Of a DNA stretch of 64,000 nt, positions 23,970-27,735 are shown in pieces. How positions within the stretch are numbered: position 1 is the first letter of the stretch; each line of letters begins with the position of its first letter. The position numbers were made by a program, and so were the translations under genes. Source of the DNA: Escherichia coli (lineage in GTDB: Bacteria; Pseudomonadota; Gammaproteobacteria; Enterobacterales; Enterobacteriaceae); NCBI RefSeq assembly GCF_044324785.1, contig NZ_CP172127.1. One strand, written 5' to 3'. The notes beneath the pieces are model-generated. The model saw only the letters and a program-made list of their open reading frames with translations, searched no databases and had not been told where the DNA came from.

Positions 23970-25253
23970 TTAGTCTTTAGCTGTTGCATTTTGTTTATGA
24001 AACAGTTCACGGAACACCGGATAAATATCATCCTGGTCGCGGATATGCTGCATCGCAAAGTTGTCGAAAGTAGATTGCAGATGCTCATACTCTCGCCACA
24101 GTGTCTGATGAGCGCGACGGGTAATTTCGATATAGCTGTAATAACGAACAAAGGGTAATAATTTTTTCGCCAGGATTTCATGGCAAAGCGGAGAGTCATC
24201 GGCCCAGTTATCGCCGTCCGATGCTTGTGCCGCGTAAATATTCCACTGTGCCGGGTTATAACGCTCTTTCACTACATCATCCATCAGTTTCAGGGCGCTG
24301 GAAACAATGGTGCCGCCAGTTTCCTGCGAGTAGAAAAATTCATGTTCATCGACTTCTTTCGCCTGGGTATGATGGCGGATGTATACGACTTCCACGTTCT
24401 TATACGTTCTGCTAAGGAACAGATACAGCAGAATATAAAAACGCTTAGCCATATCTTTAGTGGACTGATCCATTGAACCCGAAACGTCCATCAGGCAAAA
24501 CATCACTGCCTGGCTGGAGGGATCGGGCCGCTTCTCGTAGTTCTTGTAACGTAAATCGAAGGTGTCAATGAAAGGGACGCGTTCAATTTTGGCACGTAAT
24601 TCTGCAATTTCTTTGCGCAGACGTTCCTCTTCCAGTAGTTGCGCAGGTTCACTGTTGCTGATGATGGCCAAATTTTCTTCCAGCGCATGAAGTTCCCGCC
24701 GCTTGCCCGCCGTCATGGCTGTGCGTCGTGCCAATGAGTTCTGCAATGAACGCACAACACTGATATTGGCCGGAACGCCGTTAGCGGTATAACCCGCACG
24801 ATGCGTTTTATATTCGGTCAGCTGGCGTTGTTGGTTTTGTTTCAGATTCGGTAAGGCCAGATCTTCAAAGAGCAGATCAAGATACTCATCTTTCGAAATC
24901 TGAAAGACAAATTCATCCTGACCTTCACCATCCTGGCTGGCCTGGCCCTGACCACTGCCGGAACCTCCGCCGCCACCCTGGGGACGTTCAATTCGGTCGT
25001 TCTGGACGAAATGGTCATTGCCCGGATGCACGCGGTGGCGCAGACCGCCACGCCCCTGATGAAACATCGGTTCGCTAATATCTTCCGTGGGAATGGATAC
25101 GGACTCGCCGCTGTCGACGTCAGTCACCGAACGCTTATTAATGGCCTCGGAGATCGACTGTTTAATTTGCGCTTTATAACGGCGTAAAAAACGCTGGCGA
25201 TTCACCATGCTTTTGTTTTTGCCGTTCAGACGCCGGTCAATAAACCAGGTCAT
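23970..25253 (-). CDS. yeaH: DUF444 protein YeaH
   Basis: 427-aa ORF with Gly-rich low-complexity segment [12 protein letters not shown]; downstream of yeaG on the same strand. Confidence 0.85.
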
Positions 25254-25365
25254 ATGCCCCCCGTACTACATTTGCCAACTGTATGCTACGCCTGTGTTGC
25301 CGCTTCTCTGGCCCACGGTTCGCTGTCGTTGTAGGCCCGGTAGCATGTGTACCGGGCCAGGGTTG

Positions 25366-27300
25366 TTAAGACGATTTACGTACGCGCAAATACCATTCGC
25401 ACAGTAAACGCACCTGTTTACGGGTGTAGCCTTTTTCCATCATACGGTCGACAAAGTCGTCATGTTTCTTCTGCTCGTCGGTTGACGTTTTGGCGTTAAA
25501 CGAAATAACCGGCAACAGCTCCTCGGTATTGGAGAACATTTTCTTCTCAATAACCGTGCGCAGTTTTTCATAGCTGGTCCAGTTCGGATTGCGTCCGCTG
25601 TTATTCGCTCTGGCGCGCAGTACGAAGTTAACAATCTCGTTGCGGAAATCTTTTGGATTACTGATCCCCGCCGGTTTCTCGATTTTCTCCAGCTCGGCGT
25701 TAAGAGACTCGCGGTCAAACAACTGCCCGGTATCCGGATCGCGATACTCCTGATCCTGAATCCAGAAATCCGCGTAGGTAACATAACGGTCGAAAATGTT
25801 TTGCCCATATTCGGAATAGGATTCAAGGTAGGCCGTCTGGATCTCTTTGCCGATAAACTCGGCATATTTCGGGATCAGATAACCTTTCAGGAACTCCAGA
25901 TAGCGTTCTGCCTGCTCTTGCGGGAACTGCTCGCGCTCGATCTGCTGTTCCAGGACGTAGAACAGATGGACCGGGTTTGCCGCCACTTCTACATGATCGA
26001 AGTTGAACACGCGGGAGAGGATCTTAAACGCAAAACGCGTCGACAGACCGTTCATCCCTTCATCGACACCGGCATAGTCACGATATTCCTGATACGACTT
26101 GGCTTTGGGATCGGTGTCTTTCAGACTTTCGCCATCATAAACCCGCATCTTTGAATAAATGCTGGAGTTTTCTGGCTCTTTCAGGCGCGAAAGAATGGAG
26201 AAACGTGACAGTGTTTCCAGCGTGCCAGGGGCGCAGGGGGCGTGAGTCAATTCACTGTGATTAAGCAATTTCTCGTAGATTTTGATCTCTTCGGAAATGC
26301 GCAAGCAATACGGCACCTTCACGATGTAAACACGATCGAGGAAGGCTTCGTTGTTTTTGTTATTACGGAAAGTGACCCATTCGGATTCGTTCGAGTGGGC
26401 GAGAATAATCCCGTTGAACGGCAGGGCGGAGATACCTTCCGTCCCGTTGTAGTTACCTTCCTGAGTGGCGGTTAGCAAGGGATGCAGCACTTTTATCGGT
26501 GCTTTAAACATCTCGACAAATTCCATGATCCCCTGATTGGCGCGGCACAGCGCACCGGAATAGCCGTAGGCGTCCGGGTCATTCTGCGCGTAGTGTTCGA
26601 GTTTACGAATATCGACTTTCCCAACCAGCGCGGAGATGTCCTGGTTGTTCTCATCACCGGGTTCCGTTTTGGCGATAGCAATTTGTTGCAGAATTGACGG
26701 CCAGACCTTCACTACCCGGAACTTAGTGATATCGCCACCAAATTCATGCAGGCGTTTTGCCGCCCACGGCGACATGATGGTGCCGAGATAACGGCGAGGA
26801 ATGCCATACTCTTTTTCCAGAATCTGCGCATCTTCCTGCGGATTGAAAAGACAGAACGGATGATCGTTGACCGGGCTACGCTCACCGTTGGCGCTCAATA
26901 CATAAATCGGTACGAGCTGCATTAATGATTTCAGTCGCTCAGCAAGCGATGATTTACCCCCACCCACAGGCCCCAGCAGATACAGGATTTGTTTCTTCTC
27001 TTCCAGCCCCTGAGCCGCGTGTTTCAGATAAGAGACAATCTGTTCAATCGCGTCTTCCATGCCGTAAAACTCTTCAAACGCCGGATAACGTGCAATGACC
27101 CGGTTAGAAAAGAGTCGAGAAAGTCTGGGTTCCTGGGCTGTATCGACCATGACAGGCTCACCGATAGCCATCAATAGCCGCTCAGCCGCGTTGGCATAAG
27201 CACTGCGATCTTGCCGACAAGTGGTAAGAAACTCCTGCAGTGTGAACTCTTCGTCCTTGGCAGCTTCATATCGCTGGCGATAGTGATCGAATATATTCAT
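25366..27300 (-). CDS. yeaG: PrkA-family serine protein kinase YeaG
   Basis: 644 aa; AAA-type Walker A GPVGGGKSSLAERL in the N-terminal domain. Confidence 0.9.
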   Translation of the reverse strand: MNIFDHYRQRYEAAKDEEFTLQEFLTTCRQDRSAYANAAERLLMAIGEPVMVDTAQEPRLSRLFSNRVIARYPAFEEFYGMEDAIEQIVSYLKHAAQGLEEKKQILYLLGPVGGGKSSLAERLKSLMQLVPIYVLSANGERSPVNDHPFCLFNPQEDAQILEKEYGIPRRYLGTIMSPWAAKRLHEFGGDITKFRVVKVWPSILQQIAIAKTEPGDENNQDISALVGKVDIRKLEHYAQNDPDAYGYSGALCRANQGIMEFVEMFKAPIKVLHPLLTATQEGNYNGTEGISALPFNGIILAHSNESEWVTFRNNKNNEAFLDRVYIVKVPYCLRISEEIKIYEKLLNHSELTHAPCAPGTLETLSRFSILSRLKEPENSSIYSKMRVYDGESLKDTDPKAKSYQEYRDYAGVDEGMNGLSTRFAFKILSRVFNFDHVEVAANPVHLFYVLEQQIEREQFPQEQAERYLEFLKGYLIPKYAEFIGKEIQTAYLESYSEYGQNIFDRYVTYADFWIQDQEYRDPDTGQLFDRESLNAELEKIEKPAGISNPKDFRNEIVNFVLRARANNSGRNPNWTSYEKLRTVIEKKMFSNTEELLPVISFNAKTSTDEQKKHDDFVDRMMEKGYTRKQVRLLCEWYLRVRKSS

Positions 27301-27403
27301 GGTATGCCGTCCTTTCGTTTTTTAGCACAGGTTAAGAGCCGTTCATATGAATAGTAGAGGCTCCCGGAAGAGGTAAACTGAACGACGTCTCTTGCTAAAA
27401 CAC

Positions 27404-27419
27404 AGCAACTCTCATGCCA
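27404..27419 (-). promoter_or_regulatory. sigma54 promoter of yeaGH
   Basis: Minus strand reads TGGCAT-GAGAG-TTGCT, matching TGGCAC-N5-TTGCW with correct GG/GC spacing, about 105 nt before the yeaG ATG. Confidence 0.65.
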
Positions 27420-27735
27420 TTTTATCGACGATGAGAACAACGTGCCCGGTGATACACCTTCAAAATTAAGCGTAGATGGCAAATGGAAAACTTGCCTACA
27501 CGGCTTTCTTAATTTCAATGGCATATCAACAACTCATCCATAAATTTTGCATAATTAATGTAAAGACCAGGGTCGCCAGTAACGCTAAATTCATTTGGCT
27601 GTAAGCGCGATGTCATCCGCGTCAGGAAAATTAAACAGTTACTTTAAAAAATGAAAACGTAAAAAGGTTGGGTTTCGATGTATTGACGGGTAAACTTTGT
27701 CGCCCGCTAAACATTTGTTTAAGGAATGATTAATT

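Follow-up and report, generated by a model that had tools for sequence, protein, structure and literature searches.

The yeaG-yeaH operon of Escherichia coli as a probable stress operon with tandem sigmaS-type and sigma54 promoters

The yeaG and yeaH genes of the 64-kb stretch of Escherichia coli DNA analysed here (the window) probably form a conserved stress operon that is transcribed from tandem sigmaS-type and sigma54 promoters and closed by a terminator after yeaH, and whose two products act in one pathway with YcgB. We assign this reading a probability of roughly 0.85. A first-pass annotation of the same DNA had described the genes as driven by a sigma54 promoter. This proved partly right, because the sigma54 element is real and is bound by sigma54 and NtrC, but a sigmaS-type promoter is present about 50 bp further upstream and is the more widely conserved of the two. 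In the mechanism that we propose, the upstream promoter would be ancestral in gammaproteobacteria and would drive the genes during stationary phase and general stress. The downstream sigma54 promoter, found only in Enterobacterales, would be fired by NtrC once nitrogen is exhausted, thereby adding a nitrogen-starvation input. YeaG, an AAA+ ATPase that also carries a kinase-like domain, would function together with YeaH and the unlinked SpoVR-family protein YcgB in a single pathway that slows metabolism and holds back the resumption of growth during sustained starvation. The literature and EcoCyc (2000-2018) already cover the yeaGH operon with its sigma54 element, the binding of NtrC and the phenotype under nitrogen starvation, and a 2018 review describes two neighbouring yeaGH promoters, one dependent on sigma54 and one on sigma38 (PMC6299236).

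Both genes reside on the minus strand. The yeaG coding sequence (25366..27300) specifies 644 amino acids, with an AAA+ domain at the N terminus and a PrkA kinase-like domain at the C terminus, while yeaH (23970..25253) specifies a 427-amino-acid protein of the DUF444/YhbH family whose C-terminal half is the vWA domain. The open reading frame coordinates confirm the earlier description of two genes on one strand separated by 112 bp (25254..25365). Directly 3' of the yeaG stop codon, inside this spacer, is a GC-rich hairpin without a T-run (25334..25358, minus strand; GGCCCGGTA-N7-TACCGGGCC), although its significance is doubtful because the folding energy of the whole spacer is ordinary (z = -0.5). 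An intrinsic terminator-like hairpin, with an 11-bp stem followed by a T-run, is located directly 3' of the yeaH stop codon (23937..23965, minus strand) and closes the operon, with cdgI as the following gene. On the other side, the intergenic region 5' of yeaG (27301..27735) extends 435 bp to the divergent gene mipA. This region was previously noted as unusually long and AT-rich, which holds true: its GC content is 40%, compared with 49.8% for the whole window, and a 44-kb annotated portion of a near-identical E. coli genome, with 45 intergenic gaps, has none longer. The yeaG/yeaH locus was found, and is so annotated, in 5,425 of 5,426 complete E. coli genomes, the closest of which shares 99.5% identity over 4 kb of the locus. 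A search of the whole window against Rfam at the gathering threshold yielded sroD (5881..5966) as the sole match, with none in the yeaG leader or the spacer.

The assignment of YeaG to the PrkA family with a Walker A motif is borne out by matches to Pfam AAA_PrkA (residues 19-380, E = 2e-187) and PrkA (residues 382-636, E = 1.7e-70), and by a score of 1342 bits against the NCBIfam equivalog NF011999 (cut-off 576). Together, the two domains, which define the PrkA/YeaG family along with the Walker A lysine, cover the full length of the protein. The Walker A sequence GPVGGGKS occupies residues 110-117 and supplies the lysine (K116); R232 and K426 are also present. Marginal Pfam matches were obtained with AAA_5 (E = 0.11) and Mg_chelatase (E = 0.62). 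Amino acid identity between the E. coli and Alteromonas proteins is 84%, and YeaG is among the most conserved gammaproteobacterial stress proteins. RefSeq names the product 'protein kinase YeaG'. Separately, a PrkA homologue has been deposited in the PDB as 'Serine protein kinase' (9xip, 9xiq and 9xir), and a literature search found no paper behind these entries.

YeaH is a DUF444 protein, as first annotated, with a full-length match to Pfam PF04285 (E = 1.3e-190) and 842 bits against the NCBIfam equivalog NF003708 (cut-off 466). When YeaH was compared with PDB sequences, either as a single sequence or as a profile, no significant match emerged, and the vWA domain was revealed by fold comparison only. 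Specifically, a Foldseek search with the AlphaFold2 model (mean pLDDT 86.8) returned a top 50 made up almost entirely of vWA/MIDAS domains, with E-values down to 8e-7, including the MIDAS structures of NorQD and Rea1/MDN1. The corresponding MIDAS residues of YeaH (D256-x-S258-x-S260, T315 and D346) show no variation across 99 diverse homologues. These findings identify YeaH as a vWA protein with a predicted MIDAS metal site, which makes YeaG and YeaH an AAA+/vWA pair, and we infer that YeaH may serve as a MIDAS adaptor of the YeaG AAA+ ring. YeaH is still called unlike anything known in the literature, and the presence of this domain sharpens the question of its role without answering it.

The activity of YeaG is disputed between kinase, protease and ATPase alone. 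It is possible, if rather unlikely, that YeaG acts mainly as a Hanks-type Ser/Thr kinase on specific substrates such as AceA, and that YeaH has an unrelated, accessory function. The E. coli protein has been reported to show kinase activity in vitro and to phosphorylate AceA in a malate-dependent manner, and the failure of the kinase-like domain mutant K426A to complement a yeaG deletion agrees with such a role. However, the Walker A mutant K116A likewise does not complement, and the Bacillus orthologues lack both kinase activity and a P-loop in the kinase-like domain. For example, B. subtilis PrkA was reported to be a Lon-like protease without kinase activity, and neither kinase nor protease activity was seen with B. 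anthracis PrkA, for which contaminants have been reported as a problem (PMC13001217). An accessory role for YeaH also sits poorly with its intact MIDAS vWA domain, given that AAA+ ATPases pair with such domains elsewhere (NorQ/NorD and Rea1), and with the observation that a yeaH deletion has the same phenotype as a yeaG deletion.

We tentatively consider that YeaG, YeaH and YcgB might constitute a stress-induced protein-remodelling machine and not a conventional kinase cascade, in which the MIDAS of YeaH captures clients or docks on the YeaG ring. By analogy, such a machine could operate in the mode of NorQ/NorD or of the Rea1 MIDAS, and the kinase-like domain could be regulatory or a pseudokinase. 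E. coli ycgB is in a separate operon (10.1101/072470), and no SpoVR-family gene is present directly downstream of yeaH in the window, where the terminator is followed by cdgI. In Shewanella, the genes form a prkA-yeaH-spoVR cluster, the third open reading frame of which is identified as SpoVR by NF008737 (938 bits). Across six bacteria, cofitness links yeaG, yeaH and ycgB.

The putative sigmaS-type promoter carries the extended -10 element TCTACGCTTAA at 27466..27476 on the minus strand, comprising C at -13, then TACGCT, then TAA. This element matches the sigmaS consensus KCTAYRCTTAA with C at -13, which was reportedly defined by Weber et al. in 2005. Transcription is predicted to begin near 27462 and to yield a leader of ~162 nt that spans the sigma54 element. 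In 80 gammaproteobacterial upstream regions, the core cTA..cTtaa is kept in at least 70-90%, and conservation reaches at least 90% at each of the hexamer positions T, A and T. A block further upstream, TTGATATGCCATTGAAAT (27512..27529, minus strand; approximately -67 to -50), is conserved in the Enterobacterales rows of the upstream-region alignment. A sigma70 promoter scan was uninformative, with 4 matches against 4.9 expected, and missed the sigmaS-type promoter because TACGCT with a weak -35 element does not reach the threshold of the scan. Data from Salmonella support the assignment, in that 5730 yeaG reads in the wild type fall to 26 upon rpoS deletion (~220-fold dependence), and reads from the yeaG 5' non-coding region fall from 589 to 1 (PMC4330354). 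The sigmaS-type promoter dominates stationary-phase expression in that organism (PMC4330354).

The sigma54 -24/-12 element proposed ahead of yeaG was confirmed on the minus strand as TGGCATGAGAGTTGCT (27419..27404), whose 3' end is 103 nt ahead of the ATG at 27300. It forms part of the 17-mer ATGGCATGAGAGTTGCT (27404..27420), from which a start at 27393 and a leader of 93 nt are predicted. Its GG and GC doublets are separated by exactly 10 bp and face the downstream gene, and relative to the consensus TGGCAC-N5-TTGCW the element departs at one base, a common C-to-T change. The exact sequence TGGCAT-N5-TTGCT occurs once in the 64-kb window, compared with 0.07 occurrences expected from shuffles. 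Among 25 distinct Enterobacterales loci, TGGCAy-N5-TTGCT is invariant amid divergent flanks and a variable N5 spacer, and the element is 78-138 nt from the ATG in 24 loci and 226 nt away in the other. These 25 are the only ones of the 80 gammaproteobacterial upstream regions to carry the element; Yersinia, Edwardsiella, Vibrionales, Alteromonadales and Aeromonas retain the operon with no sigma54 element. This distribution suggests that the sigma54/NtrC input is an Enterobacterales-specific addition made 3' of an ancestral sigmaS promoter. Furthermore, 4,340 of 5,424 E. coli genomes carry the 85-bp promoter core at 100% identity, but only 257 retain at least 99% identity across the 4 kb around it, and this better preservation points to selection on the core.

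Binding of sigma54 to this element is documented in published data. The 17-mer is identical to the E. coli ChIP-seq site OS18 (FAT score 6) of Bonocora et al. (2015; PMC4591121), and EcoCyc lists a predicted sigma54 promoter for yeaGH. The site identified in Salmonella by sigma54 ChIP-chip carries the same -24/-12 sequence, but sigma54 changes expression of the yeaGH operon only 2.5-fold there, in the presence of a promiscuous activator (PMC3844500). The cloned Salmonella yeaG promoter region is at least as active in an rpoN mutant as in the wild type, and is among four cloned promoters that were undiminished or stronger without rpoN (PMC3844500). This rpoN independence of the reporter is due to other promoters (PMC3844500).

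The proposed link to nitrogen starvation is supported by an NtrC ChIP-seq peak over the yeaGH promoter region (PMC4066584) and by a 36-fold increase in yeaG mRNA under nitrogen starvation (PMC4664914). The peak window is at or downstream of the sigma54 motif (PMC4066584) and not at the usual enhancer position ~100 bp upstream. The NtrC dependence of yeaG expression in E. coli is cited there from an earlier microarray study (PMC4066584). A scan of 27250..27760 with the NtrC consensus TGCACC-N5-GGTGCA yielded nothing at 8/12 or better. The best score was 7/12, and 27548..27564, ~135 bp upstream, is among the best candidates at this weak score. The upstream region of the NtrC-activated astC gene in the same window also reaches only 7/12, and thus the scan has low power and does not locate the enhancer. 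Both start sites (27393 and ~27462) and the position of the NtrC enhancer are putative.

The tandem geometry raises the improbable alternative that the sigma54 site is mainly a brake. RNA polymerase-sigma54, held as a stable closed complex over roughly +43 to +58 of the sigmaS transcript, would block or dampen transcription from the sigmaS promoter until phosphorylated NtrC becomes available, such that the two inputs would be gated and not simply summed. The placement of the sigma54 element ~50 bp downstream of the sigmaS -10 would permit this arrangement, sigma54 holoenzyme is typically promoter-bound yet inactive (PMC4591121), and the equal or stronger activity of the cloned Salmonella promoter in the rpoN mutant also speaks for a brake (PMC3844500). 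However, the spacing between the two elements varies by genus from 50 to more than 70 bp, which argues against precise mechanical coupling, and closed complexes are usually displaced by elongating polymerase. Least credible, and largely refuted already, is the proposal that yeaGH is driven solely or principally by sigma54 and that the AT-rich upstream DNA is only an enhancer or bending region: despite a strong and conserved -24/-12 element, in vivo binding of sigma54 (PMC4591121) and NtrC (PMC4066584) and the 36-fold induction of yeaG under nitrogen starvation (PMC4664914), the sigmaS-type -10 is far more widely conserved, Salmonella stationary-phase expression is ~220-fold rpoS-dependent (PMC4330354), a Salmonella reporter is fully active without rpoN (PMC3844500), and the lineages named above maintain the operon without the element.

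The yeaG leader contains a hairpin (27334..27365, minus strand) in which GGGAGCC pairs with GGCTCTT and the loop varies between genera. Minimum-free-energy folds from many genera contain it, as do the aligned leaders, with pairs counted by eye. The same by-eye comparison revealed compensatory stem changes to GGGGGC/GCUCCC in Serratia and AGGAGC/GUUCCU in Erwinia. RNAalifold did not recover the hairpin from a MAFFT alignment of the leaders, although single-sequence folds show it, because the variable loops misalign. A 75-amino-acid open reading frame that overlaps the leader (27297..27524) was rejected as a gene, since its start is upstream of both predicted transcription starts; moreover, the corresponding annotated feature in Salmonella is treated as yeaG 5' non-coding sequence (PMC4330354).

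The two-promoter arrangement can be compared with well-studied relatives. The K-12 operon (b1783-b1784) has the same genes, lengths and order, and both ATGGCATGAGAGTTGCT and the 93-nt distance from start to ATG are identical. There is no difference of substance, and the window represents another E. coli-like strain. An ancient sigmaS promoter later joined by a lineage-specific sigma54 promoter would sharpen the question of what YeaG and YeaH do without answering it. Two inputs to one gene from adjacent promoters, one of the sigma70 family and the other enhancer-dependent and using sigma54, are familiar from glnAp1/glnAp2. Likewise, the sigma54 promoter of glmY is combined with a sigma70-family promoter, in tandem or overlapping (PMC3844500). 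In contrast to glnA and glmY, the partner promoter of yeaG is sigmaS-type and upstream, so its transcript crosses the sigma54 element, and canonical NtrC sites are unrecognisable in a low-power scan. The Salmonella Typhimurium operon (STM1285-84) has the identical -24/-12 sequence TGGCATGAGAGTTGCTTT, is bound by sigma54, depends on sigmaS and is preceded by a transcribed 5' leader. It differs in that sigma54 has just a 2.5-fold effect in strain LT2, where a third promoter that requires neither sigma54 nor sigmaS has been suggested (PMC3844500).

At the protein level, YeaG and YeaH are orthologous to PrkA and YhbH of the prkA-yhbH-spoVR modules, which are found as sporulation genes in Bacillus and also in Shewanella and many proteobacteria; cofitness of the three genes is conserved. 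The window differs in that the SpoVR-family gene is non-adjacent and a terminator follows yeaH. An AAA+ gene beside a MIDAS-vWA gene is likewise seen in the MoxR-type pairs NorQ-NorD, RavA-ViaA and CbbQ-CbbO, and the combination recurs in Rea1/MDN1. However, Pfam places the AAA+ domain of YeaG in a separate family, AAA_PrkA, and this domain is joined to a kinase-like one; in addition, nothing in those systems corresponds to the large N-terminal region of YeaH. The likeness to the MoxR AAA+/vWA pairs would thus be an analogy of working logic only, and not one of family membership.

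The coordinates, minus-strand orientation and 112-bp gap that the first-pass annotation assigned to yeaG and yeaH agree with the ORF calls, which place yeaG at 25366..27300 (minus strand, 644-aa product) and yeaH at 23970..25253 (minus strand, 427-aa product). Its description of a PrkA-family protein with a Walker A motif and a DUF444 protein is likewise upheld by Pfam matches for YeaG (AAA_PrkA, residues 19-380, E = 2e-187; PrkA, residues 382-636, E = 1.7e-70) and YeaH (DUF444, E = 1.3e-190), by the NCBIfam equivalogs NF011999 (YeaG, 1342 bits, cut-off 576) and NF003708 (YeaH, 842 bits, cut-off 466), and by the sequence GPVGGGKS at YeaG residues 110-117, in which the lysine is K116. 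Matches to the locus occur in 5,425 of 5,426 complete E. coli genomes, with its genes annotated as yeaG, yeaH, mipA and cdgI. When positions 23800..27800 were compared with these genomes, the top identity was 99.5% over 4 kb and most values were 95-99%; two matches are to records typed as plasmids. The window may stem from a lineage outside this genome set, possibly Shigella.

The sigma54 promoter of yeaG is real and has already been published. The 16-mer TGGCATGAGAGTTGCT (27419..27404, minus strand, as for yeaG), identified by sequence match, is the sole exact match in the window, compared with 0.07 expected from shuffles. The sequence ATGGCATGAGAGTTGCT is the intergenic sigma54 ChIP-seq peak OS18 of Bonocora et al. 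(PMC4591121), with a predicted start 93 bp before yeaG and a promoter predicted earlier in EcoCyc. In window coordinates, the OS18 motif centre falls at 27412 and the predicted start at 27393, exactly 93 nt before the yeaG ATG (27300). An identical sequence is bound by sigma54 in Salmonella (Samuels et al., PMC3844500). The link to nitrogen starvation that had been drawn for this operon is confirmed by an NtrC ChIP-seq peak at yeaGH (Brown et al., PMC4066584) and a 36-fold increase in yeaG mRNA under nitrogen starvation (Figueira et al., PMC4664914). In a search for the NtrC enhancer, no intergenic 17-mer scored 8/12 or better against the NtrC consensus TGCACC-N5-GGTGCA, a scan of little power because the upstream region of NtrC-activated astC, also in the window, yielded nothing above 7/12. 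A second sigma54 promoter, CTGGCACGAACCCTGCA (63337..63353, plus strand), precedes the astC ATG at 63426; it corresponds to site OS17 (PMC4591121), the astC promoter verified by experiment, and the ORF downstream starts with MSQPI.

To check the sigma54 promoter independently, upstream regions were compared for 80 loci encoding close YeaG relatives, with one genome per species. The pattern TGGCAy-N5-TTGCT, with all 11 specified positions intact, is carried by 25 distinct Enterobacterales sequences, including the window and Escherichia, Citrobacter, Enterobacter, Kosakonia, Pluralibacter, Erwinia, Pantoea, Serratia, Brenneria, Rahnella, Dickeya and Tatumella. The distance to the ATG is 78-138 nt in 24 of these sequences and 226 nt in one, and divergence is such that neither the flanks nor the N5 spacer can be aligned. 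Within this 80-locus comparison, the element was not found in Yersinia, Edwardsiella or several Pantoea symbiont genomes, nor in any Vibrionales, Alteromonadales, Shewanella or Aeromonas locus. Published ChIP data and these 25 intact sequences bear out the -24/-12 element proposed before yeaG.

A second pattern, cTA..cTtaa, is common to nearly all 80 loci and in the window reads TCTACGCTTAA (27476..27466, minus strand), a sigmaS-type extended -10. It lies ~100-170 nt before the prkA/yeaG ATG in relatives (loci L002-L081) from Enterobacterales, Vibrionales, Alteromonadales and Shewanella, and in its hexamer TACGCT the T, A and T are conserved to 90% or more. Judged from these alignments, the conservation of this putative -10 is unusually deep for a promoter. 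TCTACGCTTAA fits the sigmaS extended -10 consensus, KCTAYRCTTAA, with the diagnostic C at -13. The predicted start at ~27462 gives a leader of ~162 nt, which would run across the sigma54 element ~50 bp further downstream.

In Salmonella, yeaG reads number 5730 in the wild type versus 26 in an rpoS deletion, and those of the yeaG 5' non-coding region, wrongly annotated as STM14_1559, number 589 versus 1 (PMC4330354). The sigma54 effect in Salmonella LT2 is only 2.5-fold, and the cloned yeaG promoter region is equally active without rpoN (PMC3844500). A 2018 review describes two adjacent yeaGH promoters, sigma54- and sigma38-dependent (PMC6299236). Given this review, the Salmonella rpoS and rpoN data, the wide conservation of the -10 and the limitation of the sigma54 element to Enterobacterales, the best description is an ancestral sigmaS promoter to which a sigma54/NtrC promoter was added downstream in the Enterobacterales lineage, with both starts predicted. 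The first-pass reading of a module driven by a sigma54 promoter is therefore partly supported: it is correct in naming a real promoter but incomplete in missing the more widely conserved sigmaS-type one, and all of it was already known.

The region upstream of yeaG (27301..27735) is 435 bp long, with 40% GC versus 49.8% for the whole window. Calling it unusually long was fair because it is the longest of the 45 intergenic gaps that a near-identical genome has along 44 kb of annotated sequence, though yeaG shares it as a control region with the divergent mipA. Of 5,424 E. coli genomes, 4,340 carry an 85-bp core with both promoter elements at 100% identity, whereas only 257 reach 99% identity over the surrounding 4 kb, which is mostly coding. 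This pattern of sequence identity suggests that the promoter core is strongly constrained. A further block, TTGATATGCCATTGAAAT (27512..27529, minus strand), is conserved across Enterobacterales ~50-67 bp before the predicted sigmaS start; it overlaps a sigma70-like match on the other strand (27526..27555), directed toward mipA.

Within the leader, a putative hairpin (27334..27365, minus strand) would pair GGGAGCC (27365..27359) with GGCTCTT (27340..27334), and compensatory changes appear to preserve the stem, around a variable loop, in other genera. Next comes the nearly invariant GTGCTAAAAACGAAAGGACGG (within 27301..27330, minus strand), which holds the ribosome-binding site; together the hairpin and this stretch may form a post-transcriptional control site. 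A 75-aa ORF (27297..27524, minus strand) over the leader and both promoters is probably spurious, since its Salmonella equivalent STM14_1559 was treated as yeaG 5' non-coding region (PMC4330354). A GC hairpin with unremarkable folding energy lies in the spacer right after the yeaG stop codon, and a terminator-like hairpin with a T-run (23965..23937, minus strand) directly follows yeaH. Rfam searches detected no family in the yeaG-yeaH region; the sole family in the window is the sRNA sroD, matched over its full length (RF00370, 115 bits, 5881..5966, plus strand).

The yeaGH operon is induced by both nitrogen starvation and stationary phase, and strains lacking yeaG or yeaH recover from starvation after a shorter lag and are less viable when nitrogen starvation is prolonged. 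For YeaG to complement its deletion, the Walker A lysine K116 and the kinase-domain lysine K426 are both required. YeaG is extremely conserved, with amino-acid identity of 94-100% across most Enterobacterales loci, 92% in Edwardsiella and one Pantoea symbiont, and 82-89% for Vibrio, Shewanella and Alteromonas. Its enzymology is disputed. E. coli YeaG was reported as a kinase that phosphorylates AceA with malate present; B. subtilis PrkA was reported as a Lon-like protease without kinase activity; and highly purified B. anthracis PrkA displayed neither activity, the earlier protease signal being perhaps due to a contaminant. A PDB search matched YeaG (E = 7.5e-51) to a PrkA homologue of 692 aa entered as 'Serine protein kinase' (9xip/9xiq/9xir; 30 chains in three entries), for which a literature search found no paper. 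These structures may already show in what oligomeric state the protein occurs and whether nucleotide is bound by the kinase-like domain. In Shewanella, Pseudoalteromonas, Rheinheimera and Alteromonas (loci L046, L051 and L058-L081), a gene encoding ...WNHTFYW..., resembling the Fe/Mn superoxide dismutase signature, lies ~250-600 nt upstream of prkA. SodB T34 was listed among the phosphosites missing when yeaG is deleted in E. coli (PMC8055822).

In published accounts YeaH resembles no known protein, and sequence searches of the PDB yielded no match to it, but conserved residues, a structure model and fold comparison alter this view. When 99 diverse homologues were aligned, taken from a family with 3,384 clusters at 50% identity, D256, S258, S260, T315 and D346 proved invariant; they form the DxSxS...T...D MIDAS pattern. 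The C-terminal ~190 residues of an AlphaFold2 model (mean pLDDT 86.8) match PDB vWA domains, with E-values down to 8e-7. Based on the invariant residues, the model and these fold matches, YeaG and YeaH form an AAA+/vWA-MIDAS gene pair. As a third partner, a SpoVR-family protein is conserved alongside YeaG and YeaH; its gene is directly downstream in Shewanella and does not adjoin yeaH in the window. The corresponding E. coli gene, ycgB, is unlinked and has fitness phenotypes in common with yeaG and yeaH (bioRxiv 10.1101/072470). We tentatively consider, as a rather doubtful proposal, that the YeaG AAA+ ring would work with the YeaH MIDAS adaptor as a conserved core mechanism. Among the fold matches of YeaH are two partners of AAA+ ATPases, the MIDAS domains of Rea1/MDN1 and the NorD protein from the NorQD complex.
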